Shown: positions 1 through 36,168 of the stretch, in pieces
Numbering within the stretch: position 1 is the stretch's first letter
Layout: the number at the start of each line of letters is the position of its first letter
Assembly (NCBI GenBank): GCA_043228905.1
Contig: JBHGNT010000013.1
Location: forward strand, 20,088,001 to 20,152,000
Direction: 5' to 3'
DNA: 64,000 nt
From: Azolla caroliniana
Taxonomy: Eukaryota > Plantae > Polypodiophyta
Program-made: the position numbers and the translations under genes
The notes under the pieces: generated by a model
Told to the model about the DNA's origin: nothing
The model's input: the letters and a program-made list of their open reading frames with translations, nothing else
Databases searched by the model: none

Positions 1-2651
1 AATTAGCGTTGAACTAATTCTATGTATCTGTATGTCATCCCTAGGCCACACTCTCCAACATAACACATATATCTACGTTATGTACATATGTATGTATGTC
101 ATCCCTAGTCCATAGTCTCCAACATAACACAATATCTCTACGTCATGTACATATATGTATGCATGTCGTCCCTAGTCCCTAGTCTCCAACGTAACACATA
201 TAGATCTACGTTATGTAAATATGTATGTATGTCATCCCTACTCCATAGACTCGGACATTTCACAAATTTATCGCTGCCGCGCGTTCGCTCACACGTACCT
301 AGTCATCGCGCACTCACCCCACCCGCTACCCGTGTATATCCGATTCTCGGCCAAGGCGCCTGCATGGCCCATTACCATGTGCGCGACGATCGACGCGTTC
401 TGGTTCGGGCACCGTAGGCCGATGCAACATGGTCGACGCATGTCCGCAAAAATCACTTATAATACGTAACGACGACCCTTCATCCCGCTCGTGGCCGGGT
501 GGAATGTTGATGCGCGCGGAACGACGCAAAGCGCCCATGGCCTGCTCTCGCACCACGTCTACGTTGTCCCGCGACCAACAATACTTAACATATCTCAACG
601 CGACACGGAGCTCCGGTCCCATAGACTCCAATCTCTCCGTCACTTGCCACCGTGATTGCCTCTTGCCCTCATCTCGACCTCTTATAAGTAACTCCCCCGT
701 GTGCGCGACGTACGCCATACCTCGCATTATAATCGAGGGTGTTAAGTTGTGTAGTGGGCAAGTCCCTCCATGGATCAGGACCGCGCGCAACTATTCTACG
801 AATTCGAAGGACATTCGACATGCATGATCAACTATGCAACCGGTGAGTTCGATGCCCCAATGTTTCGCTTCGAACAATATGCACACGACTACTCACCTGC
901 ACATTGCCAACGCATCAGGTGTGTGTGGCCGGCCACAAACACCATCAGGTGTGCCTGTAAGCCGCCACACAAGGATATTTAGTTTGTGGTTCGCACCTAG
1001 CTGTTCGAATGGAATTAAAGAAGAAGTTGGTCCAACATTTGGGTTCGAACATCCTAAATCTCGTTCGACCAACGATGATATTATACCGAGCTTAAAAAGG
1101 TCCAATTTACCGAAGCCGTGGGATATCCAATATTACTACTTGCTCCTACCACAAGCCCTACAAAAACACAACTATTCGTACGGGTCCCTATCTCGTTGAC
1201 CCACCTATAAATGGATTAGTAGTTGTTATCGTGGACTTCAAAGGGACGTAATGAGCGAGCCATTGCCTCATACTCATAAACCGTTCTGCGAGGGCCGACG
1301 CAACCTCGTAATTCGTAGTGGTATACCGTTGACATCATCATCGGAGCTCGCTCTCACTTTTGCTATCAATTATAGAAAAGGGGGGAGATCCCTTGTATCA
1401 CCTCGCTTCAACACATCCGGCGACCCGGACACTTCGAGCGCCGTAATGCCTTCTTCGTGCTTTGCATAACAATCTTTTGCCGATAAGTATCGCGTAAGAG
1501 TTCCGAAATATTAAACAAAGGCTCGAAGACGTTCACAAACTCTGTCGGCCGAGCGGAGAAGCACTGTGAACTAGCTCCAAAACCAAGCATGCTTATTCGA
1601 TGCATAGAGCATACGAGAGACGAGAATCTGAAACGAGGTTAGAACTCAAATTAATAAGCACAAAGAACGGGTGCTCAACCCCATACTCCAATATTATCAA
1701 TCATCGTAAGCACGGAGCAAATAATATACGCAAGCATTTTTGGCATCGATAAGGAATAAATAAACAAAATGAATACATATCTGAACAATGCACCAAAGCC
1801 AATAGACATCGTATGGATCGTGACATTCGTGTCTCCTTTGCTTCCCGTCGTAGCATCCCGCACGTTATATAGGCCGTACGTATTGGGAATTCAATTCTCT
1901 TGGTTTTATACCGAGAGTACGCTTAGAAGGATTGCGCGTGGAATTTGACTTTGTGATCTGCTTTGAATTCGGACGTATATCATTGCCTAGCTAGCCGTGA
2001 TATTCGTACGATGGCTACGATGCCATTTTAGTTGTGACGACAAGTATTGGAAAGGTTTGTTTCGTATATAGGTACAGTAAGTGACTTTTCCTATGTATTT
2101 GACGTTGATTTTGAACGTAGGTGCCGCCATATCAAACTTTGATCTTCGTGATGATCGCTCGAATTCGTATACGTGTCCCTAACCCCTCTCAAAATTCTAG
2201 ATGTTCCAATCGTAACGGATGGTGTTTCAATGAGGGAACTTGGGATGTTATGCCCTCACTTAGGAATAGTACATAAGTTCTAATTAGCTAATTCATGTGC
2301 TTTGGAAGCCTCGTCTCGAAAGAAATACGCCGCGTCATTCATAAGCAGGGAATTGAGGAAACCTAAGACATCGGTTTGCACAATCGAAGCCGTTCGTAGC
2401 TAGAAGTAGCCGAGCCAAATTCACAGTTTTGAAAAGGAATGTATTATGATCAAGCTTGGCTTCGTTTTACATCATGAATCATGAATGGGACGATCAAGCA
2501 GTGACGAGATTAGTGATTCGGCGTCGGAATGACGTCTTAGGAATCCGATTTATTGGCGGACGGTGGATGTGACGTACCGTTAAGTCCACACAATATAATA
2601 TGTTTGAGGGTCTTAACATTATTCAGATGCCAATTCAATGAGTTAAGAGAT

Positions 2652-4566
2652 TCATGCGAAGGGTAGGACGATTCTAGGGGTGGCTGTGACGCGTAGAGGG
2701 GTCTTCATTTCGGAGGAGAGTTTCAGGATCTCGGTCAGGTCGAGGTCGCGTGCCATTTTATCCTCGGGCAAGGACCACGTAAAGTGGTGGAGGAGCCTGG
2801 CCGTCCATAGTTGCACGGTGGCCAAACCCATCGCCCTTCCCGGGCACACCCTCCGACCGGCCCCGAAAGGTGCTAACCTCAAATCGCCACCTCGCACGTC
2901 CACGTCTTCCTCGACGAACCTGTCGGGAACGAACCGGTCAGGCTTCTCCCAAATGTCCGCGTCGTGTGTAATGGCCCACATGTTCACCATGGCTGTCGTC
3001 CCTGCTGGCACGTGATGGCCCGCTAGCTCGACGTCCGATGTGGCCAACCTCGCCCATGAGAGCAACGGCCCGGGTGGGTGCATCCTCAACGTCTCCTTGA
3101 TGATGGCATTCACGTAAGGAAGGAGTGCCATGTCGGCTTCTCGCACGGTACGACATCGGCCCACGACAGCATCCAGCTCGGCTTGCGCTCGTGCTTGAAC
3201 CTCTGGGTGTAGGACCATCTCCGCGAGGATCCACTCCATGAGGATGGCGGTCGTGTCGGTTCCTCGGAATATCATTTCCTGGAGAAAAGAGCATGTAACG
3301 GGACACCGATTAGGATAGAAAAACGTGCAAAGTTGTTTGGACTAGGAAGCCACGAACGTACACGGTCCATTACATTCGTCGACCTTGACGACGCGACTCG
3401 TAAAAACACATTGCAATCCCGTTAAATATATGTGTATTTATATATAGTGGCGACCTTCAAGAGTTACGTACCCATAGGATGGCGATTATATCGGTATCCG
3501 AGAGTTTTTCGCTAGTCTGCAACGATAGGAGCACGTCCACAAAGTCGTCGGCCTCATCCACGGAGCTTTCACCAGAACCGTGCTCGCGACGGGCTCGATG
3601 CTCGTCTATGATCGTTTGGACGAAGTCTTGCACCTCTGCCACCAGCTTCGTGCATCGTGAATGCACTCCCTGGAGATCCAACCATTTCAAGAACGGCAAG
3701 TGATCGCTCCAATTGAACGCGCCGAGAAGCTCGAAGCCTTCTCGAATCATTCTGCGCAATTGCTCCGCCTCCGGATCGACTTGCACTAGGGCTTGCTTCT
3801 GAGTGTAAACGAAGTCGTAGCGACGGCCAAAGACGCTCTTCATGATGTTGTTGATGGAAGTGAGCTGGAGGAGAGGGCGGATTTCGAAGCTGGACCCCGA
3901 TTGGGCATGGATGGATTGGAGGAGCTGGGTTGTTTCGAACTGCCGGCAAGGCTCGAGGGCTGACAGGCGCCGGGGGGCGAAGAGGTGGGTGGCGGCAATG
4001 CGTCGGAGCGTGCGCCAATAATCGCCGTAGGGAGCGAATCCGATGGCGCGATGGAAGAGGAGGAGCTTGGCCGATTGTTTGATGGGGCGATCCGCGAAAG
4101 AGGAGCTGCTCAAAATCTCACGGGCGACGGAAGGTTCGGAGGTCAGGATGACTCGCGTGGTGCCGAGGCTGAAGGCCATCAAGGACTTGGCGGAGTGAGC
4201 ACGTGCGAGGTCGGCGAGGCGGACATGGGGGCGTTCGCCCATGAGCTCGAGCAAGCTACCCACCAACGGCCAGCCGCGTGGGCCTCGGATTTCCTTAGCA
4301 AGGGCATGGGAATTCGCGCGTGCCGCGAGGCCCCAGGCTGGCCCGCCAGGATGGCGCCACCACGCCAAGATTGCCAGCAAGCCGCTACAGACGAGCAAGG
4401 CCAGAATATGGCGGGCGGCCCAGATTGCACCTAGGAGAGAAGATCGTGAGAGCAACAACAACACGAGATGGAGACTAGTGGAGATCGCGGCACCCTCCGT
4501 CGACGAAGATGAAGCGATTGCGGCGGCGGATGATAACATCGGTGACGACACCGATATGGGATCCAT
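2652..4566 (-). CDS. CYP78A: Cytochrome P450 CYP78A (KLUH-like), copy 1; exons 4566-3472 and 3278-2652, 193-bp GT-AG intron, about 573 aa
   Basis: CYP78 I-helix W|EMIFRGTDT split by the intron, [17 protein letters not shown], heme motif [22 protein letters not shown], hydrophobic N-terminal anchor, canonical splice sites. Confidence 0.95.
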
Positions 4567-4673
4567 GTTTCCTCCTCCTCCTCTTGATCTTGATCAATGC
4601 GTTGTTCCGATTATACTCCCCTACTCATCAATGTGCTTGGCTACTCTACTCTACTCATCTTGCTCCCTCTCTC

Positions 4674-4728
4674 TTATATGTTATATATATACATACACAC
4701 ATATATATATATCTATACACACACACAC
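4674..4728. repeat. (TA)n/(CA)n microsatellite in the CYP78A 5' leader region; 2 bp longer in copies 3-4
   Basis: Seen directly; explains the 4879 versus 4881 period. Confidence 0.9.
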
Positions 4729-4899
4729 AACACGTATAACCCGTGAGCCACACAAGCGCTACTCTCTCTCTTCCCCCTATCAACGCTTCCATGCACGCAC
4801 GTGCTAATAAGGGAGAGACCACCCACACAATAATAGGGGAGAGAAAGGAAAGGCAATGGCTATACTAAGCCAATAAGCTAATTAGCGTTGAACTAATTC

Positions 4900-5130
4900 T
4901 ATGTATCTGTATGTCATCCCTAGGCCACACTCTCCAACATAACACATATATCTACGTTATGTACATATGTATGTATGTCATCCCTAGTCCATAGTCTCCA
5001 ACATAACACAATATCTCTACGTCATGTACATATATGTATGCATGTCGTCCCTAGTCCCTAGTCTCCAACGTAACACATATAGATCTACGTTATGTAAATA
5101 TGTATGTATGTCATCCCTACTCCATAGACT
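4900..5130. repeat. About 65-bp minisatellite, about 3.5 copies, upstream of CYP78A in every unit (also 21-250, 9779-10010, 14660-14890, 19541-19770)
   Basis: Recurring tatgtatgtcatccctag...ctccaacataacacat...tctacgt.atgtaca. Confidence 0.85.
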
Positions 5131-7530
5131 CGGACATTTCACAAATTTATCGCTGCCGCGCGTTCGCTCACACGTACCTAGTCATCGCGCACTCACCCCA
5201 CCCGCTACCCGTGTATATCCGATTCTCGGCCAAGGCGCCTGCATGGCCCATTACCATGTGCGCGACGATCGACGCGTTCTGGTTCGGGCACCGTAGGCCG
5301 ATGCAACATGGTCGACGCATGTCCGCAAAAATCACTTATAATACGTAACGACGACCCTTCATCCCGCTCGTGGCCGGGTGGAATGTTGATGCGCGCGGAA
5401 CGACGCAAAGCGCCCATGGCCTGCTCTCGCACCACGTCTACGTTGTCCCGCGACCAACAATACTTAACATATCTCAACGCGACACGGAGCTCCGGTCCCA
5501 TAGACTCCAATCTCTCCGTCACTTGCCACCGTGATTGCCTCTTGCCCTCATCTCGACCTCTTATAAGTAACTCCCCCGTGTGCGCGACGTACGCCATACC
5601 TCGCATTATAATCGAGGGTGTTAAGTTGTGTAGTGGGCAAGTCCCTCCATGGATCAGGACCGCGCGCAACTATTCTACGAATTCGAAGGACATTCGACAT
5701 GCATGATCAACTATGCAACCGGTGAGTTCGATGCCCCAATGTTTCGCTTCGAACAATATGCACACGACTACTCACCTGCACATTGCCAACGCATCAGGTG
5801 TGTGTGGCCGGCCACAAACACCATCAGGTGTGCCTGTAAGCCGCCACACAAGGATATTTAGTTTGTGGTTCGCACCTAGCTGTTCGAATGGAATTAAAGA
5901 AGAAGTTGGTCCAACATTTGGGTTCGAACATCCTAAATCTCGTTCGACCAACGATGATATTATACCGAGCTTAAAAAGGTCCAATTTACCGAAGCCGTGG
6001 GATATCCAATATTACTACTTGCTCCTACCACAAGCCCTACAAAAACACAACTATTCGTACGGGTCCCTATCTCGTTGACCCACCTATAAATGGATTAGTA
6101 GTTGTTATCGTGGACTTCAAAGGGACGTAATGAGCGAGCCATTGCCTCATACTCATAAACCGTTCTGCGAGGGCCGACGCAACCTCGTAATTCGTAGTGG
6201 TATACCGTTGACATCATCATCGGAGCTCGCTCTCACTTTTGCTATCAATTATAGAAAAGGGGGGAGATCCCTTGTATCACCTCGCTTCAACACATCCGGC
6301 GACCCGGACACTTCGAGCGCCGTAATGCCTTCTTCGTGCTTTGCATAACAATCTTTTGCCGATAAGTATCGCGTAAGAGTTCCGAAATATTAAACAAAGG
6401 CTCGAAGACGTTCACAAACTCTGTCGGCCGAGCGGAGAAGCACTGTGAACTAGCTCCAAAACCAAGCATGCTTATTCGATGCATAGAGCATACGAGAGAC
6501 GAGAATCTGAAACGAGGTTAGAACTCAAATTAATAAGCACAAAGAACGGGTGCTCAACCCCATACTCCAATATTATCAATCATCGTAAGCACGGAGCAAA
6601 TAATATACGCAAGCATTTTTGGCATCGATAAGGAATAAATAAACAAAATGAATACATATCTGAACAATGCACCAAAGCCAATAGACATCGTATGGATCGT
6701 GACATTCGTGTCTCCTTTGCTTCCCGTCGTAGCATCCCGCACGTTATATAGGCCGTACGTATTGGGAATTCAATTCTCTTGGTTTTATACCGAGAGTACG
6801 CTTAGAAGGATTGCGCGTGGAATTTGACTTTGTGATCTGCTTTGAATTCGGACGTATATCATTGCCTAGCTAGCCGTGATATTCGTACGATGGCTACGAT
6901 GCCATTTTAGTTGTGACGACAAGTATTGGAAAGGTTTGTTTCGTATATAGGTACAGTAAGTGACTTTTCCTATGTATTTGACGTTGATTTTGAACGTAGG
7001 TGCCGCCATATCAAACTTTGATCTTCGTGATGATCGCTCGAATTCGTATACGTGTCCCTAACCCCTCTCAAAATTCTAGATGTTCCAATCGTAACGGATG
7101 GTGTTTCAATGAGGGAACTTGGGATGTTATGCCCTCACTTAGGAATAGTACATAAGTTCTAATTAGCTAATTCATGTGCTTTGGAAGCCTCGTCTCGAAA
7201 GAAATACGCCGCGTCATTCATAAGCAGGGAATTGAGGAAACCTAAGACATCGGTTTGCACAATCGAAGCCGTTCGTAGCTAGAAGTAGCCGAGCCAAATT
7301 CACAGTTTTGAAAAGGAATGTATTATGATCAAGCTTGGCTTCGTTTTACATCATGAATCATGAATGGGACGATCAAGCAGTGACGAGATTAGTGATTCGG
7401 CGTCGGAATGACGTCTTAGGAATCCGATTTATTGGCGGACGGTGGATGTGACGTACCGTTAAGTCCACACAATATAATATGTTTGAGGGTCTTAACATTA
7501 TTCAGATGCCAATTCAATGAGTTAAGAGAT

Positions 7531-9445
7531 TCATGCGAAGGGTAGGACGATTCTAGGGGTGGCTGTGACGCGTAGAGGGGTCTTCATTTCGGAGGAGAGT
7601 TTCAGGATCTCGGTCAGGTCGAGGTCGCGTGCCATTTTATCCTCGGGCAAGGACCACGTAAAGTGGTGGAGGAGCCTGGCCGTCCATAGTTGCACGGTGG
7701 CCAAACCCATCGCCCTTCCCGGGCACACCCTCCGACCGGCCCCGAAAGGTGCTAACCTCAAATCGCCACCTCGCACGTCCACGTCTTCCTCGACGAACCT
7801 GTCGGGAACGAACCGGTCAGGCTTCTCCCAAATGTCCGCGTCGTGTGTAATGGCCCACATGTTCACCATGGCTGTCGTCCCTGCTGGCACGTGATGGCCC
7901 GCTAGCTCGACGTCCGATGTGGCCAACCTCGCCCATGAGAGCAACGGCCCGGGTGGGTGCATCCTCAACGTCTCCTTGATGATGGCATTCACGTAAGGAA
8001 GGAGTGCCATGTCGGCTTCTCGCACGGTACGACATCGGCCCACGACAGCATCCAGCTCGGCTTGCGCTCGTGCTTGAACCTCTGGGTGTAGGACCATCTC
8101 CGCGAGGATCCACTCCATGAGGATGGCGGTCGTGTCGGTTCCTCGGAATATCATTTCCTGGAGAAAAGAGCATGTAACGGGACACCGATTAGGATAGAAA
8201 AACGTGCAAAGTTGTTTGGACTAGGAAGCCACGAACGTACACGGTCCATTACATTCGTCGACCTTGACGACGCGACTCGTAAAAACACATTGCAATCCCG
8301 TTAAATATATGTGTATTTATATATAGTGGCGACCTTCAAGAGTTACGTACCCATAGGATGGCGATTATATCGGTATCCGAGAGTTTTTCGCTAGTCTGCA
8401 ACGATAGGAGCACGTCCACAAAGTCGTCGGCCTCATCCACGGAGCTTTCACCAGAACCGTGCTCGCGACGGGCTCGATGCTCGTCTATGATCGTTTGGAC
8501 GAAGTCTTGCACCTCTGCCACCAGCTTCGTGCATCGTGAATGCACTCCCTGGAGATCCAACCATTTCAAGAACGGCAAGTGATCGCTCCAATTGAACGCG
8601 CCGAGAAGCTCGAAGCCTTCTCGAATCATTCTGCGCAATTGCTCCGCCTCCGGATCGACTTGCACTAGGGCTTGCTTCTGAGTGTAAACGAAGTCGTAGC
8701 GACGGCCAAAGACGCTCTTCATGATGTTGTTGATGGAAGTGAGCTGGAGGAGAGGGCGGATTTCGAAGCTGGACCCCGATTGGGCATGGATGGATTGGAG
8801 GAGCTGGGTTGTTTCGAACTGCCGGCAAGGCTCGAGGGCTGACAGGCGCCGGGGGGCGAAGAGGTGGGTGGCGGCAATGCGTCGGAGCGTGCGCCAATAA
8901 TCGCCGTAGGGAGCGAATCCGATGGCGCGATGGAAGAGGAGGAGCTTGGCCGATTGTTTGATGGGGCGATCCGCGAAAGAGGAGCTGCTCAAAATCTCAC
9001 GGGCGACGGAAGGTTCGGAGGTCAGGATGACTCGCGTGGTGCCGAGGCTGAAGGCCATCAAGGACTTGGCGGAGTGAGCACGTGCGAGGTCGGCGAGGCG
9101 GACATGGGGGCGTTCGCCCATGAGCTCGAGCAAGCTACCCACCAACGGCCAGCCGCGTGGGCCTCGGATTTCCTTAGCAAGGGCATGGGAATTCGCGCGT
9201 GCCGCGAGGCCCCAGGCTGGCCCGCCAGGATGGCGCCACCACGCCAAGATTGCCAGCAAGCCGCTACAGACGAGCAAGGCCAGAATATGGCGGGCGGCCC
9301 AGATTGCACCTAGGAGAGAAGATCGTGAGAGCAACAACAACACGAGATGGAGACTAGTGGAGATCGCGGCACCCTCCGTCGACGAAGATGAAGCGATTGC
9401 GGCGGCGGATGATAACATCGGTGACGACACCGATATGGGATCCAT
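7531..9445 (-). CDS. CYP78A: CYP78A copy 2 (exons 9445-8351, 8157-7531), His87 variant
   Basis: Translation identical to copy 1. Confidence 0.95.
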
Positions 9446-12409
9446 GTTTCCTCCTCCTCCTCTTGATCTTGATCAATGCGTTGTTCCGATTATACTCCCC
9501 TACTCATCAATGTGCTTGGCTACTCTACTCTACTCATCTTGCTCCCTCTCTCTTATATGTTATATATATACATACACACATATATATATATCTATACACA
9601 CACACACAACACGTATAACCCGTGAGCCACACAAGCGCTACTCTCTCTCTTCCCCCTATCAACGCTTCCATGCACGCACGTGCTAATAAGGGAGAGACCA
9701 CCCACACAATAATAGGGGAGAGAAAGGAAAGGCAATGGCTATACTAAGCCAATAAGCTAATTAGCGTTGAACTAATTCTATGTATCTGTATGTCATCCCT
9801 AGGCCACACTCTCCAACATAACACATATATCTACGTTATGTACATATGTATGTATGTCATCCCTAGTCCATAGTCTCCAACATAACACAATATCTCTACG
9901 TCATGTACATATATGTATGCATGTCGTCCCTAGTCCCTAGTCTCCAACGTAACACATATAGATCTACGTTATGTAAATATGTATGTATGTCATCCCTACT
10001 CCATAGACTCGGACATTTCACAAATTTATCGCTGCCGCGCGTTCGCTCACACGTACCTAGTCATCGCGCACTCACCCCACCCGCTACCCGTGTATATCCG
10101 ATTCTCGGCCAAGGCGCCTGCATGGCCCATTACCATGTGCGCGACGATCGACGCGTTCTGGTTCGGGCACCGTAGGCCGATGCAACATGGTCGACGCATG
10201 TCCGCAAAAATCACTTATAATACGTAACGACGACCCTTCATCCCGCTCGTGGCCGGGTGGAATGTTGATGCGCGCGGAACGACGCAAAGCGCCCATGGCC
10301 TGCTCTCGCACCACGTCTACGTTGTCCCGCGACCAACAATACTTAACATATCTCAACGCGACACGGAGCTCCGGTCCCATAGACTCCAATCTCTCCGTCA
10401 CTTGCCACCGTGATTGCCTCTTGCCCTCATCTCGACCTCTTATAAGTAACTCCCCCGTGTGCGCGACGTACGCCATACCTCGCATTATAATCGAGGGTGT
10501 TAAGTTGTGTAGTGGGCAAGTCCCTCCATGGATCAGGACCGCGCGCAACTATTCTACGAATTCGAAGGACATTCGACATGCATGATCAACTATGCAACCG
10601 GTGAGTTCGATGCCCCAATGTTTCGCTTCGAACAATATGCACACGACTACTCACCTGCACATTGCCAACGCATCAGGTGTGTGTGGCCGGCCACAAACAC
10701 CATCAGGTGTGCCTGTAAGCCGCCACACAAGGATATTTAGTTTGTGGTTCGCACCTAGCTGTTCGAATGGAATTAAAGAAGAAGTTGGTCCAACATTTGG
10801 GTTCGAACATCCTAAATCTCGTTCGACCAACGATGATATTATACCGAGCTTAAAAAGGTCCAATTTACCGAAGCCGTGGGATATCCAATATTACTACTTG
10901 CTCCTACCACAAGCCCTACAAAAACACAACTATTCGTACGGGTCCCTATCTCGTTGACCCACCTATAAATGGATTAGTAGTTGTTATCGTGGACTTCAAA
11001 GGGACGTAATGAGCGAGCCATTGCCTCATACTCATAAACCGTTCTGCGAGGGCCGACGCAACCTCGTAATTCGTAGTGGTATACCGTTGACATCATCATC
11101 GGAGCTCGCTCTCACTTTTGCTATCAATTATAGAAAAGGGGGGAGATCCCTTGTATCACCTCGCTTCAACACATCCGGCGACCCGGACACTTCGAGCGCC
11201 GTAATGCCTTCTTCGTGCTTTGCATAACAATCTTTTGCCGATAAGTATCGCGTAAGAGTTCCGAAATATTAAACAAAGGCTCGAAGACGTTCACAAACTC
11301 TGTCGGCCGAGCGGAGAAGCACTGTGAACTAGCTCCAAAACCAAGCATGCTTATTCGATGCATAGAGCATACGAGAGACGAGAATCTGAAACGAGGTTAG
11401 AACTCAAATTAATAAGCACAAAGAACGGGTGCTCAACCCCATACTCCAATATTATCAATCATCGTAAGCACGGAGCAAATAATATACGCAAGCATTTTTG
11501 GCATCGATAAGGAATAAATAAACAAAATGAATACATATCTGAACAATGCACCAAAGCCAATAGACATCGTATGGATCGTGACATTCGTGTCTCCTTTGCT
11601 TCCCGTCGTAGCATCCCGCACGTTATATAGGCCGTACGTATTGGGAATTCAATTCTCTTGGTTTTATACCGAGAGTACGCTTAGAAGGATTGCGCGTGGA
11701 ATTTGACTTTGTGATCTGCTTTGAATTCGGACGTATATCATTGCCTAGCTAGCCGTGATATTCGTACGATGGCTACGATGCCATTTTAGTTGTGACGACA
11801 AGTATTGGAAAGGTTTGTTTCGTATATAGGTACAGTAAGTGACTTTTCCTATGTATTTGACGTTGATTTTGAACGTAGGTGCCGCCATATCAAACTTTGA
11901 TCTTCGTGATGATCGCTCGAATTCGTATACGTGTCCCTAACCCCTCTCAAAATTCTAGATGTTCCAATCGTAACGGATGGTGTTTCAATGAGGGAACTTG
12001 GGATGTTATGCCCTCACTTAGGAATAGTACATAAGTTCTAATTAGCTAATTCATGTGCTTTGGAAGCCTCGTCTCGAAAGAAATACGCCGCGTCATTCAT
12101 AAGCAGGGAATTGAGGAAACCTAAGACATCGGTTTGCACAATCGAAGCCGTTCGTAGCTAGAAGTAGCCGAGCCAAATTCACAGTTTTGAAAAGGAATGT
12201 ATTATGATCAAGCTTGGCTTCGTTTTACATCATGAATCATGAATGGGACGATCAAGCAGTGACGAGATTAGTGATTCGGCGTCGGAATGACGTCTTAGGA
12301 ATCCGATTTATTGGCGGACGGTGGATGTGACGTACCGTTAAGTCCACACAATATAATATGTTTGAGGGTCTTAACATTATTCAGATGCCAATTCAATGAG
12401 TTAAGAGAT

Positions 12410-14324
12410 TCATGCGAAGGGTAGGACGATTCTAGGGGTGGCTGTGACGCGTAGAGGGGTCTTCATTTCGGAGGAGAGTTTCAGGATCTCGGTCAGGTCG
12501 AGGTCGCGTGCCATTTTATCCTCGGGCAAGGACCACGTAAAGTGGTGGAGGAGCCTGGCCGTCCATAGTTGCACGGTGGCCAAACCCATCGCCCTTCCCG
12601 GGCACACCCTCCGACCGGCCCCGAAAGGTGCTAACCTCAAATCGCCACCTCGCACGTCCACGTCTTCCTCGACGAACCTGTCGGGAACGAACCGGTCAGG
12701 CTTCTCCCAAATGTCCGCGTCGTGTGTAATGGCCCACATGTTCACCATGGCTGTCGTCCCTGCTGGCACGTGATGGCCCGCTAGCTCGACGTCCGATGTG
12801 GCCAACCTCGCCCATGAGAGCAACGGCCCGGGTGGGTGCATCCTCAACGTCTCCTTGATGATGGCATTCACGTAAGGAAGGAGTGCCATGTCGGCTTCTC
12901 GCACGGTACGACATCGGCCCACGACAGCATCCAGCTCGGCTTGCGCTCGTGCTTGAACCTCTGGGTGTAGGACCATCTCCGCGAGGATCCACTCCATGAG
13001 GATGGCGGTCGTGTCGGTTCCTCGGAATATCATTTCCTGGAGAAAAGAGCATGTAACGGGACACCGATTAGGATAGAAAAACGTGCAAAGTTGTTTGGAC
13101 TAGGAAGCCACGAACGTACACGGTCCATTACATTCGTCGACCTTGACGACGCGACTCGTAAAAACACATTGCAATCCCGTTAAATATATGTGTATTTATA
13201 TATAGTGGCGACCTTCAAGAGTTACGTACCCATAGGATGGCGATTATATCGGTATCCGAGAGTTTTTCGCTAGTCTGCAACGATAGGAGCACGTCCACAA
13301 AGTCGTCGGCCTCATCCACGGAGCTTTCACCAGAACCGTGCTCGCGACGGGCTCGATGCTCGTCTATGATCGTTTGGACGAAGTCTTGCACCTCTGCCAC
13401 CAGCTTCGTGCATCGTGAATGCACTCCCTGGAGATCCAACCATTTCAAGAACGGCAAGTGATCGCTCCAATTGAACGCGCCGAGAAGCTCGAAGCCTTCT
13501 CGAATCATTCTGCGCAATTGCTCCGCCTCCGGATCGACTTGCACTAGGGCTTGCTTCTGAGTGTAAACGAAGTCGTAGCGACGGCCAAAGACGCTCTTCA
13601 TGATGTTGTTGATGGAAGTGAGCTGGAGGAGAGGGCGGATTTCGAAGCTGGACCCCGATTGGGCATGGATGGATTGGAGGAGCTGGGTTGTTTCGAACTG
13701 CCGGCAAGGCTCGAGGGCTGACAGGCGCCGGGGGGCGAAGAGGTGGGTGGCGGCAATGCGTCGGAGCGTGCGCCAATAATCGCCGTAGGGAGCGAATCCG
13801 ATGGCGCGATGGAAGAGGAGGAGCTTGGCCGATTGTTTGATGGGGCGATCCGCGAAAGAGGAGCTGCTCAAAATCTCACGGGCGACGGAAGGTTCGGAGG
13901 TCAGGATGACTCGCGTGGTGCCGAGGCTGAAGGCCATCAAGGACTTGGCGGAGTGAGCACGTGCGAGGTCGGCGAGGCGGACATGGGGGCGTTCGCCCAT
14001 GAGCTCGAGCAAGCTACCCACCAACGGCCAGCCGCGTGGGCCTCGGATTTCCTTAGCAAGGGCACGGGAATTCGCGCGTGCCGCGAGGCCCCAGGCTGGC
14101 CCGCCAGGATGGCGCCACCACGCCAAGATTGCCAGCAAGCCGCTACAGACGAGCAAGGCCAGAATATGGCGGGCGGCCCAGATTGCACCTAGGAGAGAAG
14201 ATCGTGAGAGCAACAACAACACGAGATGGAGACTAGTGGAGATCGCGGCACCCTCCGTCGACGAAGATGAAGCGATTGCGGCGGCGGATGATAACATCGG
14301 TGACGACACCGATATGGGATCCAT
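12410..14324 (-). CDS. CYP78A: CYP78A copy 3 (exons 14324-13230, 13036-12410), Arg87 variant
   Basis: Identical except ANSHALA to ANSRALA (SNP at 14065). Confidence 0.95.
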
Positions 14325-14458
14325 GTTTCCTCCTCCTCCTCTTGATCTTGATCAATGCGTTGTTCCGATTATACTCCCCTACTCATCAATGTGCTTGGCT
14401 ACTCTACTCTACTCATCTTGCTCCCTCTCTCTTATATCTTATATATATACATACACAC

Positions 14459-14489
<31 letters not shown>

Positions 14490-17290
14490 ACACGTATAAC
14501 CCGTGAGCCACACAAGCGCTACTCTCTCTCTTCCCCCTATCAACGCTTCCATGCACGCACGTGCTAATAAGGGAGAGACCACCCACACAATAATAGGGGA
14601 GAGAAAGGAAAGGCAATGGCTATACTAAGCCAATAAGCTAATTAGCGTTGAACTAATTCTATGTATCTGTATGTCATCCCTAGGCCACACTCTCCAACAT
14701 AACACATATATCTACGTTATGTACATATGTATGTATGTCATCCCTAGTCCATAGTCTCCAACATAACACAATATCTCTACGTCATGTACATATATGTATG
14801 CATGTCGTCCCTAGTCCCTAGTCTCCAACGTAACACATATAGATCTACGTTATGTAAATATGTATGTATGTCATCCCTACTCCATAGACTCGGACATTTC
14901 ACAAATTTATCGCTGCCGCGCGTTCGCTCACACGTACCTAGTCATCGCGCACTCACCCCACCCGCTACCCGTGTATATCCGATTCTCGGCCAAGGCGCCT
15001 GCATGGCCCATTACCATGTGCGCGACGATCGACGCGTTCTGGTTCGGGCACCGTAGGCCGATGCAACATGGTCGACGCATGTCCGCAAAAATCACTTATA
15101 ATACGTAACGACGACCCTTCATCCCGCTCGTGGCCGGGTGGAATGTTGATGCGCGCGGAACGACGCAAAGCGCCCATGGCCTGCTCTCGCACCACGTCTA
15201 CGTTGTCCCGCGACCAACAATACTTAACATATCTCAACGCGACACGGAGCTCCGGTCCCATAGACTCCAATCTCTCCGTCACTTGCCACGGTGATTGCCT
15301 CTTGCCCTCATCTCGACCTCTTATAAGTAACTCCCCCGTGTGCGCGACGTACGCCATACCTCGCATTATAATCGAGGGTGTTAAGTTGTGTAGTGGGCAA
15401 GTCCCTCCATGGATCAGGACCGCGCGCAACTATTCTACGAATTCGAAGGACATTCGACATGCATGATCAACTATGCAACCGGTGAGTTCGATGCCCCAAT
15501 GTTTCGCTTCGAACAATATGCACACGACTACTCACCTGCACATTGCCAACGCATCAGGTGTGTGTGGCCGGCCACAAACACCATCAGGTGTGCCTGTAAG
15601 CCGCCACACAAGGATATTTAGTTTGTGGTTCGCACCTAGCTGTTCGAATGGAATTAAAGAAGAAGTTGGTCCAACATTTGGGTTCGAACATCCTAAATCT
15701 CGTTCGACCAACGATGATATTATACCGAGCTTAAAAAGGTCCAATTTACCGAAGCCGTGGGATATCCAATATTACTACTTGCTCCTACCACAAGCCCTAC
15801 AAAAACACAACTATTCGTACGGGTCCCTATCTCGTTGACCCACCTATAAATGGATTAGTAGTTGTTATCGTGGACTTCAAAGGGACGTAATGAGCGAGCC
15901 ATTGCCTCATACTCATAAACCGTTCTGCGAGGGCCGACGCAACCTCGTAATTCGTAGTGGTATACCGTTGACATCATCATCGGAGCTCGCTCTCACTTTT
16001 GCTATCAATTATAGAAAAGGGGGGAGATCCCTTGTATCACCTCGCTTCAACACATCCGGCGACCCGGACACTTCGAGCGCCGTAATGCCTTCTTCGTGCT
16101 TTGCATAACAATCTTTTGCCGATAAGTATCGCGTAAGAGTTCCGAAATATTAAACAAAGGCTCGAAGACGTTCACAAACTCTGTCGGCCGAGCGGAGAAG
16201 CACTGTGAACTAGCTCCAAAACCAAGCATGCTTATTCGATGCATAGAGCATACGAGAGACGAGAATCTGAAACGAGGTTAGAACTCAAATTAATAAGCAC
16301 AAAGAACGGGTGCTCAACCCCATACTCCAATATTATCAATCATCGTAAGCACGGAGCAAATAATATACGCAAGCATTTTTGGCATCGATAAGGAATAAAT
16401 AAACAAAATGAATACATATCTGAACAATGCACCAAAGCCAATAGACATCGTATGGATCGTGACATTCGTGTCTCCTTTGCTTCCCGTCGTAGCATCCCGC
16501 ACGTTATATAGGCCGTACGTATTGGGAATTCAATTCTCTTGGTTTTATACCGAGAGTACGCTTAGAAGGATTGCGCGTGGAATTTGACTTTGTGATCTGC
16601 TTTGAATTCGGACGTATATCATTGCCTAGCTAGCCGTGATATTCGTACGATGGCTACGATGCCATTTTAGTTGTGACGACAAGTATTGGAAAGGTTTGTT
16701 TCGTATATAGGTACAGTAAGTGACTTTTCCTATGTATTTGACGTTGATTTTGAACGTAGGTGCCGCCATATCAAACTTTGATCTTCGTGATGATCGCTCG
16801 AATTCGTATACGTGTCCCTAACCCCTCTCAAAATTCTAGATGTTCCAATCGTAACGGATGGTGTTTCAATGAGGGAACTTGGGATGTTATGCCCTCACTT
16901 AGGAATAGTACATAAGTTCTAATTAGCTAATTCATGTGCTTTGGAAGCCTCGTCTCGAAAGAAATACGCCGCGTCATTCATAAGCAGGGAATTGAGGAAA
17001 CCTAAGACATCGGTTTGCACAATCGAAGCCGTTCGTAGCTAGAAGTAGCCGAGCCAAATTCACAGTTTTGAAAAGGAATGTATTATGATCAAGCTTGGCT
17101 TCGTTTTACATCATGAATCATGAATGGGACGATCAAGCAGTGACGAGATTAGTGATTCGGCGTCGGAATGACGTCTTAGGAATCCGATTTATTGGCGGAC
17201 GGTGGATGTGACGTACCGTTAAGTCCACACAATATAATATGTTTGAGGGTCTTAACATTATTCAGATGCCAATTCAATGAGTTAAGAGAT

Positions 17291-19205
17291 TCATGCGAAG
17301 GGTAGGACGATTCTAGGGGTGGCTGTGACGCGTAGAGGGGTCTTCATTTCGGAGGAGAGTTTCAGGATCTCGGTCAGGTCGAGGTCGCGTGCCATTTTAT
17401 CCTCGGGCAAGGACCACGTAAAGTGGTGGAGGAGCCTGGCCGTCCATAGTTGCACGGTGGCCAAACCCATCGCCCTTCCCGGGCACACCCTCCGACCGGC
17501 CCCGAAAGGTGCTAACCTCAAATCGCCACCTCGCACGTCCACGTCTTCCTCGACGAACCTGTCGGGAACGAACCGGTCAGGCTTCTCCCAAATGTCCGCG
17601 TCGTGTGTAATGGCCCACATGTTCACCATGGCTGTCGTCCCTGCTGGCACGTGATGGCCCGCTAGCTCGACGTCCGATGTGGCCAACCTCGCCCATGAGA
17701 GCAACGGCCCGGGTGGGTGCATCCTCAACGTCTCCTTGATGATGGCATTCACGTAAGGAAGGAGTGCCATGTCGGCTTCTCGCACGGTACGACATCGGCC
17801 CACGACAGCATCCAGCTCGGCTTGCGCTCGTGCTTGAACCTCTGGGTGTAGGACCATCTCCGCGAGGATCCACTCCATGAGGATGGCGGTCGTGTCGGTT
17901 CCTCGGAATATCATTTCCTGGAGAAAAGAGCATGTAACGGGACACCGATTAGGATAGAAAAACGTGCAAAGTTGTTTGGACTAGGAAGCCACGAACGTAC
18001 ACGGTCCATTACATTCGTCGACCTTGACGACGCGACTCGTAAAAACACATTGCAATCCCGTTAAATATATGTGTATTTATATATAGTGGCGACCTTCAAG
18101 AGTTACGTACCCATAGGATGGCGATTATATCGGTATCCGAGAGTTTTTCGCTAGTCTGCAACGATAGGAGCACGTCCACAAAGTCGTCGGCCTCATCCAC
18201 GGAGCTTTCACCAGAACCGTGCTCGCGACGGGCTCGATGCTCGTCTATGATCGTTTGGACGAAGTCTTGCACCTCTGCCACCAGCTTCGTGCATCGTGAA
18301 TGCACTCCCTGGAGATCCAACCATTTCAAGAACGGCAAGTGATCGCTCCAATTGAACGCGCCGAGAAGCTCGAAGCCTTCTCGAATCATTCTGCGCAATT
18401 GCTCCGCCTCCGGATCGACTTGCACTAGGGCTTGCTTCTGAGTGTAAACGAAGTCGTAGCGACGGCCAAAGACGCTCTTCATGATGTTGTTGATGGAAGT
18501 GAGCTGGAGGAGAGGGCGGATTTCGAAGCTGGACCCCGATTGGGCATGGATGGATTGGAGGAGCTGGGTTGTTTCGAACTGCCGGCAAGGCTCGAGGGCT
18601 GACAGGCGCCGGGGGGCGAAGAGGTGGGTGGCGGCAATGCGTCGGAGCGTGCGCCAATAATCGCCGTAGGGAGCGAATCCGATGGCGCGATGGAAGAGGA
18701 GGAGCTTGGCCGATTGTTTGATGGGGCGATCCGCGAAAGAGGAGCTGCTCAAAATCTCACGGGCGACGGAAGGTTCGGAGGTCAGGATGACTCGCGTGGT
18801 GCCGAGGCTGAAGGCCATCAAGGACTTGGCGGAGTGAGCACGTGCGAGGTCGGCGAGGCGGACATGGGGGCGTTCGCCCATGAGCTCGAGCAAGCTACCC
18901 ACCAACGGCCAGCCGCGTGGGCCTCGGATTTCCTTAGCAAGGGCACGGGAATTCGCGCGTGCCGCGAGGCCCCAGGCTGGCCCGCCAGGATGGCGCCACC
19001 ACGCCAAGATTGCCAGCAAGCCGCTACAGACGAGCAAGGCCAGAATATGGCGGGCGGCCCAGATTGCACCTAGGAGAGAAGATCGTGAGAGCAACAACAA
19101 CACGAGATGGAGACTAGTGGAGATCGCGGCACCCTCCGTCGACGAAGATGAAGCGATTGCGGCGGCGGATGATAACATCGGTGACGACACCGATATGGGA
19201 TCCAT
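17291..19205 (-). CDS. CYP78A: CYP78A copy 4 (exons 19205-18111, 17917-17291), Arg87 variant
   Basis: Translation identical to copy 3. Confidence 0.95.
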
Positions 19206-19339
19206 GTTTCCTCCTCCTCCTCTTGATCTTGATCAATGCGTTGTTCCGATTATACTCCCCTACTCATCAATGTGCTTGGCTACTCTACTCTACTCATCTT
19301 GCTCCCTCTCTCTTATATCTTATATATATACATACACAC

Positions 19340-19370
<31 letters not shown>

Positions 19371-22300
19371 ACACGTATAACCCGTGAGCCACACAAGCGC
19401 TACTCTCTCTCTTCCCCCTATCAACGCTTCCATGCACGCACGTGCTAATAAGGGAGAGACCACCCACACAATAATAGGGGAGAGAAAGGAAAGGCAATGG
19501 CTATACTAAGCCAATAAGCTAATTAGCGTTGAACTAATTCTATGTATCTGTATGTCATCCCTAGGCCACACTCTCCAACATAACACATATATCTACGTTA
19601 TGTACATATGTATGTATGTCATCCCTAGTCCATAGTCTCCAACATAACACAATATCTCTACGTCATGTACATATATGTATGCATGTCGTCCCTAGTCCCT
19701 AGTCTCCAACGTAACACATATAGATCTACGTTATGTAAATATGTATGTATGTCATCCCTACTCCATAGACTCGGACATTTCACAAATTTATCGCTGCCGC
19801 GCGTTCGCTCACACGTACCTAGTCATCGCGCACTCACCCCACCCGCTACCCGTGTATATCCGATTCTCGGCCAAGGCGCCTGCATGGCCCATTACCATGT
19901 GCGCGACGATCGACGCGTTCTGGTTCGGGCACCGTAGGCCGATGCAACATGGTCGACGCATGTCCGCAAAAATCACTTATAATACGTAACGACGACCCTT
20001 CATCCCGCTCGTGGCCGGGTGGAATGTTGATGCGCGCGGAACGACGCAAAGCGCCCATGGCCTGCTCTCGCACCACGTCTACGTTGTCCCGCGACCAACA
20101 ATACTTAACATATCTCAACGCGACACGGAGCTCCGGTCCCATAGACTCCAATCTCTCCGTCACTTGCCACGGTGATTGCCTCTTGCCCTCATCTCGACCT
20201 CTTATAAGTAACTCCCCCGTGTGCGCGACGTACGCCATACCTCGCATTATAATCGAGGGTGTTAAGTTGTGTAGTGGGCAAGTCCCTCCATGGATCAGGA
20301 CCGCGCGCAACTATTCTACGAATTCGAAGGACATTCGACATGCATGATCAACTATGCAACCGGTGAGTTCGATGCCCCAATGTTTCGCTTCGAACAATAT
20401 GCACACGACTACTCACCTGCACATTGCCAACGCATCAGGTGTGTGTGGCCGGCCACAAACACCATCAGGTGTGCCTGTAAGCCGCCACACAAGGATATTT
20501 AGTTTGTGGTTCGCACCTAGCTGTTCGAATGGAATTAAAGAAGAAGTTGGTCCAACATTTGGGTTCGAACATCCTAAATCTCGTTCGACCAACGATGATA
20601 TTATACCGAGCTTAAAAAGGTCCAATTTACCGAAGCCGTGGGATATCCAATATTACTACTTGCTCCTACCACAAGCCCTACAAAAACACAACTATTCGTA
20701 CGGGTCCCTATCTCGTTGACCCACCTATAAATGGATTAGTAGTTGTTATCGTGGACTTCAAAGGGACGTAATGAGCGAGCCATTGCCTCATACTCATAAA
20801 CCGTTCTGCGAGGGCCGACGCAACCTCGTAATTCGTAGTGGTATACCGTTGACATCATCATCGGAGCTCGCTCTCACTTTTGCTATCAATTATAGAAAAG
20901 GGGGGAGATCCCTTGTATCACCTCGCTTCAACACATCCGGCGACCCGGACACTTCGAGCGCCGTAATGCCTTCTTCGTGCTTTGCATAACAATCTTTTGC
21001 CGATAAGTATCGCGTAAGAGTTCCGAAATATTAAACAAAGGCTCGAAGACGTTCACAAACTCTGTCGGCCGAGCGGAGAAGCACTGTGAACTAGCTCCAA
21101 AACCAAGCATGCTTATTCGATGCATAGAGCATACGAGAGACGAGAATCTGAAACGAGGTTAGAACTCAAATTAATAAGCACAAAGAACGGGTGCTCAACC
21201 CCATACTCCAATATTATCAATCATCGTAAGCACGGAGCAAATAATATACGCAAGCATTTTTGGCATCGATAAGGCTGATAAGGGTGGAAGCACGCTATGG
21301 TGTACCAGAGAATTCCTATTTTTGTCCACAAAAAATGATAGTCCTTTCGATACTGTTATTTCTAAATAATTGAATAAGAAAATCAGGGGAAAAAAGCAAT
21401 TTTGGGTAGTGGGGTGATTGTAGTAAAAGTGACATTTAAGACAAGGAGTGAGGGGAACACGTGATGAGATGTTCTTTTTATTTTGGGGGTTAATTTCCCC
21501 TCAGGTGGATTTGAGCGTTTTTTGGCGCTTCCCCTCAAACCAACTTCTCTTCGTCTATCCCTTTGAGTTTGTTTTAGCTCTTCATCTCAATCATCTATCT
21601 TAGGTTTCTGGTTTTCCTCCAATCTCAGAGGTTTGTTACGATTGTATATCATTAGGGTTTAGGGAGCCTATCTCATATATTTAGGTGCTTCAATACTAAA
21701 CATGTTTTAGTGTTTGAGTTGACGATTAGAGATTGTTCTGAAGCCTCTTATAACATCCAATAATTACTTCTTCGAGAACAATTTTTTACTTCTTCCACCG
21801 ATTGCACTTTATCTCACGATGATTTGAGGCTTTTTCCACCCAGGCGAGGATCCTTCCATAGAATCGAGGTGGAATATCACACAGATTCAAGGTGCCCTCC
21901 AGCAATTGGAGGTTCCTTCCACCGATTTGAGGCATATTATTTCTGAAACATGAGGCATCATCCATTGATTTGAGGGTTTGTCCATCGATTGGAGGCACAA
22001 TACAACATTCATCTTCGTCACTTATTCCAGTCATTTGTAAGTATTCCAATACTTGTTTGAGACTTCAGTGATAATTGATTTATTTGGTAGGCACCCCTAT
22101 TCTTAATTTTTACATTTTGAGAAATCTATAGTCTCATATTCGTAAATCTATTTTTTCCTTTTCAGTACTAAATTTTTTCATTTTCATAAATCTGTAAATA
22201 AAGAAATGATTAATTGTCATTTTTTAGTCGTAATTCTAATGTCCGAAATGAATGATTTCTCACTTTGCAGATCGCATTTAAAAACATTTGACTGTAATTT

Positions 22301-22459
22301 TTTAGTGTAGTTTATATAACATTAACTACTCTCGCAAGAAAATTAATTGTTTTGGGTAAATCTAGTGACCAAATGGGGATCCCCAACGAGAGTGAGTTGT
22401 CAAGTAACTCATGTATATCTGAAAGGACCAAGAGACGAGTGGTTCTTGACATAGTCCGT

Positions 22460-23771
22460 TGTTGTGCCTTTCGACTCCAGATCGTTACGTGAATCGGGTG
22501 GGAACCACCGAGGTTTTGGACTAGGAGAAAAGAAAATTCTAAGATAATTAAGAATATGAAATATATGGTAAGAAAGAAAGTTATGAAAAACTCGTGAATC
22601 CCACGAGTATAGTGTATTAATTGATACTTAGAATATAAGATAGAAATAGATGGCAAAATCGTGAATCCCACAAATATTTTTTTATTAATCAATCCTTGTA
22701 AAATAATTAACAACCTCCATACATCAAAGTATTTAAACCTAATCAAAGTTTTTAGAACATATTAAAGATCATTGGGATAACTTAAGTTATTAGACACCAA
22801 TAAAGTATTATTAAAACACCAATATAGAGTATTATTAAAACGGGACCACACGCTTAAATGATTAAAAATAAAAATTGAAAAGAGAGATTGAGATTAAAAA
22901 ATGATTATGGTTAAGAAGGGATTATAATTAAGGGGGAAGGGGTTGCTAAAACAAAGTACTTAAACGAATGTTTAAACAAATATTTAGATAAGAAAACACT
23001 TGGGCAAACACTTAAAGCAAGGTTATGATTAAAAGAGAAGGGAGGGATTATGGTTAAAGAAAAGGGGTCATGGCTAAGAAGAGAATGATTATGATTAAGA
23101 GAGGAGAATATTTAAACAAATGTTTAAACAAAAATTTAAACCTAAAAATGATTGAACAAGTACTTTTAAAAAAAAGGGGTTGAACAAGTACGTAATAAAA
23201 ATGATTATTAAACAAGTACTTAATAGAAAATGATTAAATAAATACTTAAAAACTTAAGACAAAAAAAATTTGATAAAAAAGTGATTAAACAAGTACTTAA
23301 TAAAAATTTATTAAATAAGTACTTAAGAACTTAAGACAAAAAATTAGATAAGAGCAACACATAGAAGGAAAGAAAGTTTTACTATCATAAGGCAACGATC
23401 GGCAGTGCATTTCGCCTCGATGGAGGCTCTTCAGTGCCCGATGTACAAATGATAAAAACTAAGCCTACCAGGTTGCTCTTTTTATAGGGAGAGGGAGGAG
23501 AGTCCTTTGTATGTGGGACATACAAAAGTGTGTACAAAGGGAAGGTAAAAGAGTGTACACAAGACTTTAGGTGGGGGTTAAGAGGGGTAAGAGTACATAA
23601 AACATTAGGTGGGGGGAAAGGATGAGTGTACTAGGTGTTTTCTTAGTTTTTTACCATTTAGCCAACATGTGAGAGGGAGTGTAAGGGAACTGTATTTTAT
23701 TTATTATAAGTACTTTAAATCGGATATAGTATTTTACATATTTCACGTAGTGTGTGATTCACACTACGACA
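22460..23771 (-). mobile_element. Solo LTR related to the tRNA-Trp-primed Ty3 family
   Basis: Termini TGTTGTG...TACGACA. The first about 250 bp resemble the LTR at 38846. 4-bp TSD ccgt/tcgt. Confidence 0.9.
23398..23442 (-). ncRNA. Minimal type I hammerhead-ribozyme-like motif, probably degenerate
   Basis: Minus strand atcgggca-CTGAAGA-gcctc catc gaggc-GAAA-tgca c-tgccgat: both core boxes, perfect stem II and a bulged stem I. The NUH cleavage triplet is not intact. Confidence 0.6.
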
Positions 23772-25744: not shown

Positions 25745-26430
25745 TCTGTGTTTATTATCTTTTAATCCACATAGAGTGTTCTCCATAGACACATTGTACT
25801 GTGTTGTGTGTTGTATCTGTACTAAATCAGTATTTATTGAAAGATGTAAAGTACTCGTCTTGTACTCATAGTATTGTCCGTTCTTAAGAGTTTGTACTAA
25901 TTATCTTTTAATCCATGTTGAGTGTTCTCCATGGACACATTGTATTGTCCTATGTGGTATATCTATACTAAATCAGTATTTATTGAAGGATGTAAAGTAC
26001 TCGTCTTGTACTCATAGTATTGTTCATTCTTAAGAGTTTGTACTAATTATCTTTTAATCCATGTTTAGTGTTCTCCATGGACACATTGTACTATATTGTG
26101 TGTTGTATCTGTACTAAATGAGTATTAATGGATGTAAAGTACTCGTCGTCAGCAACATAGTATTGTCCAATATTGAAGAGTTTGTACTAATTATCTTTTA
26201 ATACATGTAGAGTGTTCTCCATGAACACATTGTATTATGCTTTGTGATGTATCCATTCTAAATTAGTATTAATGGATGGTAAGTACTGTTGGTTGACAAC
26301 GTAGTACTATTTATCTTTTAATTGGTGTAGAGTGTTCTCCATGGATACACTATGTTATGCTTTGTTATGTATTTGTACTAAATCAGTATTAATGGATGTA
26401 TAGTACTCTCGATTGACAACATAGTACTAA
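25745..26430. repeat. About 145-bp tandem repeat (about 5 copies) inside the transposase intron
   Basis: ttatcttttaat...gagtgttctccat recurs near 25755, 25901, 26047, 26191 and 26311. Confidence 0.9.
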
Positions 26431-28290: not shown

Positions 28291-28589
28291 GTACAATAGC
28301 CAAGCACAATTTCACAATTTCGCCGATCTTGTAATGCACTTGTTATTGGTGCCATTTTTACTTTTTTTACATTCTTCTTTATCTTAAAGCCTTTAGGTAT
28401 CAGCTTACTAAGTGACACTTCATCATCAGAGGCATCAGAGACAGGCGTGGATGTACAAGCACCTTGTACCAGTGGCAAGCTTGAGAGAGGAACTGTGTTT
28501 TCTACAACTGCAATGCTTGTACACACATCCACGAAGGTATTGTTGATAGTCAAATTATCACTGATCTTGTTCTCCACATGTTATTATTC

Positions 28590-36131: not shown

Positions 36132-36168
<37 letters not shown>

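Follow-up and report, generated by a model that had tools for sequence, protein, structure and literature searches.

How does a single enzyme gene from a family of dose-sensitive developmental regulators come to stand in near-identical tandem copies on a plant chromosome, and for how long has it done so? The question is raised by a 64,000-nucleotide (nt) stretch of the fern Azolla caroliniana (GenBank assembly GCA_043228905.1, contig JBHGNT010000013.1, positions 20,088,001 to 20,152,000), referred to here as the window, whose first 21,274 nt consist of head-to-tail units, each carrying a complete CYP78A cytochrome P450 gene. A first-pass annotation of the sequence had described these units as a satellite-like dosage amplicon, either very recent or actively homogenised. 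The follow-up confirms that they form a real chromosomal tandem array. The reading that we favour, with modest confidence, is that of an old head-to-tail array whose copies are likely kept alike by unequal crossing-over and gene conversion, and which is likely preserved because selection favours a large supply of the ordinary CYP78A product. The plastid rbcL protein of the assembly is identical to an entry of NCBI nr that bears the name Azolla caroliniana and whose sequence 9 UniRef entries share, which makes Azolla likely as the genus rather than settling the species.

Aligned with itself, the window gives a single match that spans 16,395 nt (99.96% identity) at offsets of 4879 and 4881 nt. 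In the genome assembly that contains the window (G000, with contigs C6, C8, C9, C13 and C130), the full array occupies G000:C13:20079444-20109274 and comprises a 553-nt partial unit and six full 4.88-kilobase (kb) units in the order AAAABB. Four full units fall within the window; to their left stand two more full units, one of which reaches into the window with its tail, and the 553-nt partial. The units of the window are as follows.

1..1754, no strand: last part of a complete type-A unit whose start lies beyond the left edge; the same sequence ends U1 and U2
1755..6633, no strand: unit U1, type A, 4879 nt
6634..11512, no strand: unit U2, type A, identical to U1
11513..16393, no strand: unit U3, type B, 4881 nt
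16394..21274, no strand: unit U4, type B, same sequence as U3; closes the array on the right

U1 and U2 agree letter for letter, as do U3 and U4, and between the two types there are 4 substitutions and one 2-nt indel, which corresponds to a within-array identity of 99.92%, a divergence of 0.08% and a synonymous divergence (dS) of 0. The first-pass annotation was accurate on these points, having reported at least four full units, about four variable sites per unit and an array running off the left edge. No undetermined base (N) occurs in the 144 kb examined around the array, which lies about 1.1 megabases from the contig end. Full-identity matches to the gene stretch, the terminal repeat and the downstream spacer, whose counts are lower bounds, were found in the assembly only at the array locus. 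Satellite DNA, in the sense of a non-coding monomer in very high copy number, does not fit as a description, since the monomer carries a gene under purifying selection and the six assembled units form one locus.

Contigs from four sequencing runs were compared: X2 and X6, which come from a single sample that may be the source; X7, which has the same species label but belongs to another study; and X9, whose species label differs. In X7, one contig of 4902 nt extends across the unit junction with a self-overlap of about 30 nt and differs from U4 by 20 substitutions and one gap (0.37%), and in X2 and X6 the type-A letters are the majority. The ratios of unit to flank contig depth are 4-10 in X2, 14-16 in X6, 16-31 in X7 and, in X9, 15-24 for the window type and 32-55 for a diverged type, where the reference is a set of short, possibly allele-specific flank contigs rather than single-copy genes, and contig depth is not a copy number. 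Contig depth thus read suggests more copies than were assembled (about 4-30, roughly); six is probably a lower bound, and any assembly error is likely to be one of under-counting. As a separate observation, X9 contains, over window positions 14727-18850, both window-identical pieces (depth 146-161) and the diverged type (depth 316-369), as might be expected of a hybrid or a mixed sample with two arrays.

Each of the four window units contains a minus-strand two-exon gene encoding a protein of 573 amino acids, with a 193-nt GT-AG intron. The U4 copy, with its ATG at 19205, its intron at 18110-17918 and its stop ending at 17291, leaves 2069 nt upstream and 897 nt downstream within the unit, which bears out the complete gene with about 2 kb and 0.9 kb of flank that had been described for each unit.

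2652..4566, minus strand: CYP78A copy (H87); exon 1 4566-3472, intron 3471-3279, exon 2 3278-2652
7531..9445, minus strand: CYP78A copy (H87); exon 1 9445-8351, intron 8350-8158, exon 2 8157-7531
12410..14324, minus strand: CYP78A copy (R87); exon 1 14324-13230, intron 13229-13037, exon 2 13036-12410
17291..19205, minus strand: CYP78A copy (R87); exon 1 19205-18111, intron 18110-17918, exon 2 17917-17291; 573 amino acids, PF00067, P450 motifs

The sole protein difference between the types, H87 in type A and R87 in type B, comes from one substitution. Both exons match PF00067, and the motifs that we take to define a P450 (heme FxxGxRxCxG, ExxR, a PERF-like motif and the I-helix threonine) are intact, with the heme motif at residue 503, ETLR at 427, PDRF at 478/483 and RGTDT at 370. 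Over the aligned part, the protein is 57.0% identical to maize CYP78A1, 58.8% to 78A11 of Oryza brachyantha, 55.2-55.7% to 78A5-like proteins and 54.2% to a Juglans 78A3-like protein; identity above 55% to named members is the threshold for CYP78A. Its closest named homologue is from the fern Adiantum. A quick IQ-TREE search over 57 rows, in which paralogue rows were assembled from tblastn pieces and Arabidopsis KLUH stood outside the tree, gives SH-aLRT support of 99 for a 54-row CYP78 clade, 98 for the array gene with its paralogue on C9, and 100 for the group that these two form with P0005 and P0004 of Adiantum; the neighbours of the array gene are fern proteins, and the 78A5-like rows form a separate seed-plant clade. 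Because its motifs and conserved columns are ordinary and its position is in the fern clade, the array gene is, as judged from sequence, a CYP78A cytochrome P450 but not a one-to-one orthologue of KLUH/CYP78A5. The intact CYP78A identity that had been proposed therefore holds, and the KLUH label overstated the relationship.

The protein departs from only 5 of the 180 columns conserved in 46 other CYP78 rows, and all five changes are conservative or common to the paralogue. Its substrate-recognition regions look like those of an ordinary CYP78A, and a new substrate specificity is unsupported on that account. R87, absent from all 12 other rows covering the position, is a derived change of type B. 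The homologue search returned no proteins 70-90% identical to the array protein, a blank that could mean that the array is confined to one clade.

The age of the array is addressed by related lineages. A scan of metagenome contigs gave 10 loci, seven of which are the array gene at 95-98%. Exact terminal overlaps in three of these seven define circular units of 4831 nt (L010), 4779 nt (L011) and 4790 nt (L015), all three with intact reading frame and splice sites; L016 is unit-length and 99.7-99.9% like L015, and L012-L014 run through one unit into the flanks. In the protein collection, the longest contig measures 4853-4998 nt for seven of the 10 members of the array protein's cluster. Whole-unit identity to the window is about 92% for L010, about 85% for L011 and about 84% for L015 (range 83.2-92.3%), and L011 and L015 are 96.7% identical to each other; relative to the window, exons retain 94-98% identity and the main upstream spacer 79-88%. 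Divergence between lineages therefore amounts to 8-17%, as against 0.08% within the array of the assembly. The codon comparison between lineages (dS 0.117-0.178, with 0.117 for window and L010, and 0.049 for L011 and L015; ratio of nonsynonymous to synonymous divergence, dN/dS, 0.079-0.111) shows purifying selection acting on the array gene.

Passages of two publications place the Azolla genome duplication at a synonymous distance (Ks) of about 0.8 (PMC6786969) and at 80 million years ago (PMC11314209). A clock set by these values gives about 12-18 million years (Myr) between lineages, about 5 Myr between L011 and L015, 0.08 Myr for the A/B difference and 0.37 Myr for the X7 contig, on a crude scale in which GC-biased conversion may inflate dS. 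Since the units of related lineages have diverged from one another, an age of millions of years is likely for the array, roughly 12-18 Myr on this crude clock. The proposal of a very recent amplification is refuted, because diverged units (dS 0.12-0.18) occur in three other lineages as unit-length or circular contigs, one of them with syntenic flank junctions.

Active homogenisation, the other half of the first-pass proposal, is upheld by copies that are near-identical within the genome and diverged between lineages, and by terminal relics that have dropped out. The relic at the left end of the array in the assembly is 94% like the array (6% diverged) and 87% like L010. In the other lineage, L012 is the same as the L011 unit as far as 1200 nt upstream of the ATG, and L014 as far as 800 nt; farther out, identity drops to 91% and 78-86%. 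Changes were polarised with outgroups in two relic comparisons (the left end in the assembly and the terminal copies of the other lineage). The array lineages show 22 AT-to-GC and 9 GC-to-AT changes with CpG decay at 0 of 35 sites, whereas the relics show 8 and 36 with decay at 16 of 53 (p 9e-6 and 1e-4 for the contrast). These polarised comparisons show an opposite substitution bias in array and relics, with terminal copies that have escaped homogenisation. Within the unit, non-coding sequence has a CpG observed/expected ratio of 1.3-1.7, apart from 0.69 immediately beside the ATG; the ratio is 0.3-0.6 for most of the old DNA in the flanks and 0.8-1.25 in the young retrotransposons on the right. 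The pattern fits units that are unmethylated and frequently converted, and drop-outs that would be methylated.

The flanks bear on whether the array is one locus. On the downstream side, L012-L014 pass into DNA that is 78-90% identical to what flanks the array on the left in the assembly, and L012 carries, on the promoter side, a pentatricopeptide repeat (PPR) gene head-to-head with the P450 gene. In the assembly, the PPR gene stands in the same orientation 68 kb to the right of the array, past a pile of long terminal repeat (LTR) retrotransposons. These comparisons show the array locus to be syntenic on both flanks in one other lineage, the only one reaching the flanks, and the flank junctions place the unit on the chromosome. 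The spacer features and the right flank are listed below.

19314..19368, no strand: TA/CA microsatellite block that all units share, roughly 110-160 nt upstream of the ATG
19549..19772, also 29-252, 4908-5131, 9787-10010 and 14668-14891, no strand: 67-nt minisatellite, 3.4 copies, in the promoter-side spacer
20629..21084, no strand: spacer segment T, in the window and L010 units; an unrelated segment Z stands instead in L011 and L015
20722..21274, no strand: 553-nt terminal redundancy with 7 occurrences in the array, identical at both array ends
21275..64000, no strand: right flank, AT-rich repeats and then nested Ty3/gypsy LTR retrotransposons, which separates the array from the PPR gene

The microsatellite block holds four of the six alignment columns that separate types A and B, repeats related to the minisatellite occur in the units of the other lineages, and the 553-nt redundancy was found nowhere else in the assembly except in the left-end relic. 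The left end of the array (G000:C13, about 20079094-20079446) preserves a diverged relic of T. Whole-genome searches of the assembly left segment Z and the start of L014 unmatched; a sensitive local BLAST recovered a 72% relic of Z beside the PPR gene, and a T-like piece stands upstream in L014. The ancestral promoter side likely held both T and Z, because of these two pieces. Two histories would lead here: a single longer unit from which each lineage lost T or Z, or two separate amplifications of the gene. On C8, a second PPR copy (94% to that of L012) has a Z relic behind it and then about 730 nt of promoter-side spacer with minisatellite at 80% (G000:C8:6001359-6002857; L030:5162-8536), with no P450 gene in the stretch fetched, the whole being an old displaced duplicate of the array's promoter side.

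A transposon-borne amplification by Helitron or LTR element was rejected, as no element termini or transposase were recognised in the unit and parts of its spacer are found only in the array; the hairpin-plus-CTAG near 21091 that might mark a Helitron is lost in L010, and the terminal repeat, present in the array only, does not behave as a transposon. No Pfam match was obtained for three spacer open reading frames, and no Rfam family at gathering level; no RNA gene was recognised in the unit, two weak mir-297 matches below the gathering score both lying in the flank.

The setting had been described as transposon-dense chromatin, which is apt for the right flank with its nested retrotransposons and not for the unit itself, which lacks CpG decay. 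A suggested sex linkage is without support, Azolla being monoecious. Within the right flank, nested LTR pairs (35548-36345/47249-48069, 94%; 38841-39684/45345-46165, 97%) surround a minus-strand Ty3/gypsy gag-pol at 35548-48069, and two interleaved chromodomain-bearing Ty3/gypsy elements, 78% alike and with long open pol frames, occupy 50407-61754. Short tandem repeats with periods of 146, 156, 52/232 and 141 nt cluster in AT-rich DNA at 25754-31655, and a very high-copy AT-rich repeat lies at 22244-22831, its summed contig depth reaching tens of thousands in all four runs. Downstream of the gene, L014 ends (6547-9129) in two direct repeats of 188 nt that stand 2395 nt apart, with internal subrepeats; this may be a further tandem unit beside the array.

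Elsewhere in the assembly there are four other CYP78-like loci, one on C9, one on C8 and two on C6, and none of the four shows a tandem repeat in the 9-10 kb fetched for each. The C9 gene is the sister of the array gene in the quick tree, with 74% identity and a dS of about 1.15. The two C6 genes (G000:C6:1380717-1381334 and 1443905-1444537; L024 and L023) lie close together in inverted orientation on a long branch; L023 is changed at 21 of 184 conserved columns, and the C8 gene (L022) is likewise fast-evolving. On the small contig C130, two P450 exon matches of equal score lie 41 kb apart (8875-9465 and 50264-50854), possibly a further duplication. The spliced full-length product of the array gene is absent from all 10 members of its protein cluster, a result uninformative on silence, as the exon-1 product of the paralogue is also absent there.

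How, then, might such an array be kept? Under selection for dose, unequal exchange and conversion would keep the copies alike while changing their number, and selection would purge damaging variants and likely hold the copy number above one. The units would be low in methylation and several copies transcribed, the extra enzyme would yield more of a fatty-acid-derived CYP78A growth signal in the shoot, and most simply the array would make more of the usual CYP78A product, with the single-copy C9 sister gene free to keep an ancestral fine-tuned role. In seed plants the amount of CYP78A is rate-limiting (PMC9037380, PMC7531801, PMC5356070); in tomato, additional copies of SlKLUH increase expression 2- to 3-fold and make the fruit heavier (PMC9037380, in part). 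A more specific version, in which an actively transcribed array behaves like ribosomal DNA (rDNA), having remained uniform and selected for more than 10 Myr, with copy number tuning the CYP78A signal and shoot growth or the leaf cavity, is possible but tentative.

Several observations weigh against the favoured reading. Depth ratios disagree between the two runs of one sample (X2 4-10, X6 14-16). The array protein has evolved somewhat faster than its C9 paralogue, with 34 versus 18 unique changes (p 0.027, one outgroup) or, with a second outgroup, 36 versus 23 (p 0.09). The two spacer types leave one origin or two. Single-copy lineages would be missed, because metagenome assembly favours high-copy loci, and uniformity inside the arrays of other lineages is indirect, because their collapsed contigs drop rare variants. 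Passages of PMC7531801 report that CYP78A5 overexpression lowers the leaf initiation rate in Arabidopsis, and passages of PMC5356070 that strong PLA1 expression blocks maize flowering, local expression raising biomass; more dose need not mean faster growth, because strong CYP78A overexpression is harmful elsewhere. According to both sources, in the same passages, it is still unknown what CYP78A enzymes act on and what they make in vivo.

The same old array could instead have been selected for dose of a bulk product, oxidised fatty acids for the cuticle, the leaf cavity or the niche of the cyanobiont, an explanation that we consider unlikely. Arrays of identical copies usually serve bulk output, and the retained paralogue and the mild rate increase would permit a new role. 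CYP78A5/7 omega-oxidise lauric and myristic acid in vitro (PMC7531801, in part), and the title of one study (PMC9262146) ties KLU to cuticle biosynthesis. The ordinary substrate-recognition regions speak against such a shift.

Equally improbable is an array that persists without selection on copy number, where recombination maintains uniformity, few copies are active and homogenisation spreads the effects of purifying selection. A low dN/dS needs no large number of active copies, depth ratios vary among samples, and the derived R87 of type B, in none of the 12 other covering rows, sits well with such a history. Over millions of years, however, a neutral array would often be expected to collapse to one copy, yet four lineages show the array (subject to the ascertainment bias already noted), and its spacers lack the CpG decay of the relics, as would fit open chromatin.

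Repeated recent amplification in each lineage at a recombination-prone locus, or extrachromosomal circles, in place of a single old array, would account for the two spacer types, and a circular contig can stem from a circle just as from a tandem array; but spacer and junction are common to the window and L010 (dS 0.117) and to L011 and L015 (dS 0.049), the terminal relic in the assembly is already 6% diverged from the array, the flank junctions are chromosomal and the unit contains no replication or transposition gene, all of which makes these routes highly doubtful. Free circles may nevertheless exist in addition to the chromosomal array. An assembly artefact, a single gene written several times, is the least credible explanation: the number of A units cannot be fixed by reads shorter than the block, because the four are letter-for-letter identical, but independent assemblies give junction-spanning or circular contigs, unit depth is 4-30 times that of flank contigs, and the two unit types are arranged in blocks.

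If the array is retained for dose, an enzyme gene with an intron, from a developmental-regulator family, would be kept as a homogenised array across species, which would be unusual, as the known long-lived cases make bulk housekeeping products. Accessions differing in copy number would form a natural dose series for the CYP78A substrate and product, and if the rDNA-like version holds, the plant would be a natural over-producer from which the CYP78A signal could be isolated. With its dated terminal relics and its two types of spacer, the locus makes the turnover of a protein-coding array directly measurable; such arrays collapse into one gene model in short-read or older assemblies. The literature search found no published CYP78 array in Azolla or ferns, supplements and subscription papers being outside its scope and a mention in a table of tandem duplicates possible. 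The main text of PMC6786969 contains neither 'P450' nor 'CYP', and that of bioRxiv 10.1101/2024.10.22.619683 none of six terms; the main text of a fern CYPome preprint mentions CYP78 a single time, among the shared families, and a cold-induced P450 in 10.1101/2024.01.05.574342 is annotated CYP736.

Among known systems, tomato fw3.2 (SlKLUH) is alike in being a tandem CYP78A copy gain in which copy number raises expression and organ size (PMC9037380, in part), but it is a duplication of about 50 kb in a crop lineage, whereas the Azolla unit is a 4.9-kb single-gene unit in six or more copies, homogenised and found across lineages. Arabidopsis KLUH/CYP78A5, rice PLA1/CYP78A11 and maize CYP78A1 share with the array protein 55-59% identity, motifs and substrate-recognition regions (passages of PMC7531801 and PMC5356070). 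Unlike these seed-plant proteins, the Azolla protein, known here from its sequence, groups in a fern clade, beside the C9 paralogue and a protein of Adiantum. rDNA, histone clusters and U2 small nuclear RNA genes are concertedly evolving arrays of bulk housekeeping products, and they resemble the present locus in within-genome uniformity, between-lineage divergence, fast spacer turnover, GC gain and diverged terminal copies; the Azolla cargo differs in being one intron-containing enzyme gene of a dose-sensitive developmental-regulator family. D4Z4/DUX4, RS447/USP17, yeast CUP1, soybean Rhg1 and EPSPS amplicons likewise have kilobase units with an intact gene or gene set; their copy number varies, as that of the Azolla array may. 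D4Z4/DUX4 and RS447/USP17, however, are animal, intronless and mostly silenced, and CUP1, Rhg1 and EPSPS are recent responses to metal, nematode or herbicide selection that are not shared across species. Homogenised gene arrays and CYP78A copy gain are each known, and their combination across lineages appears to be new.

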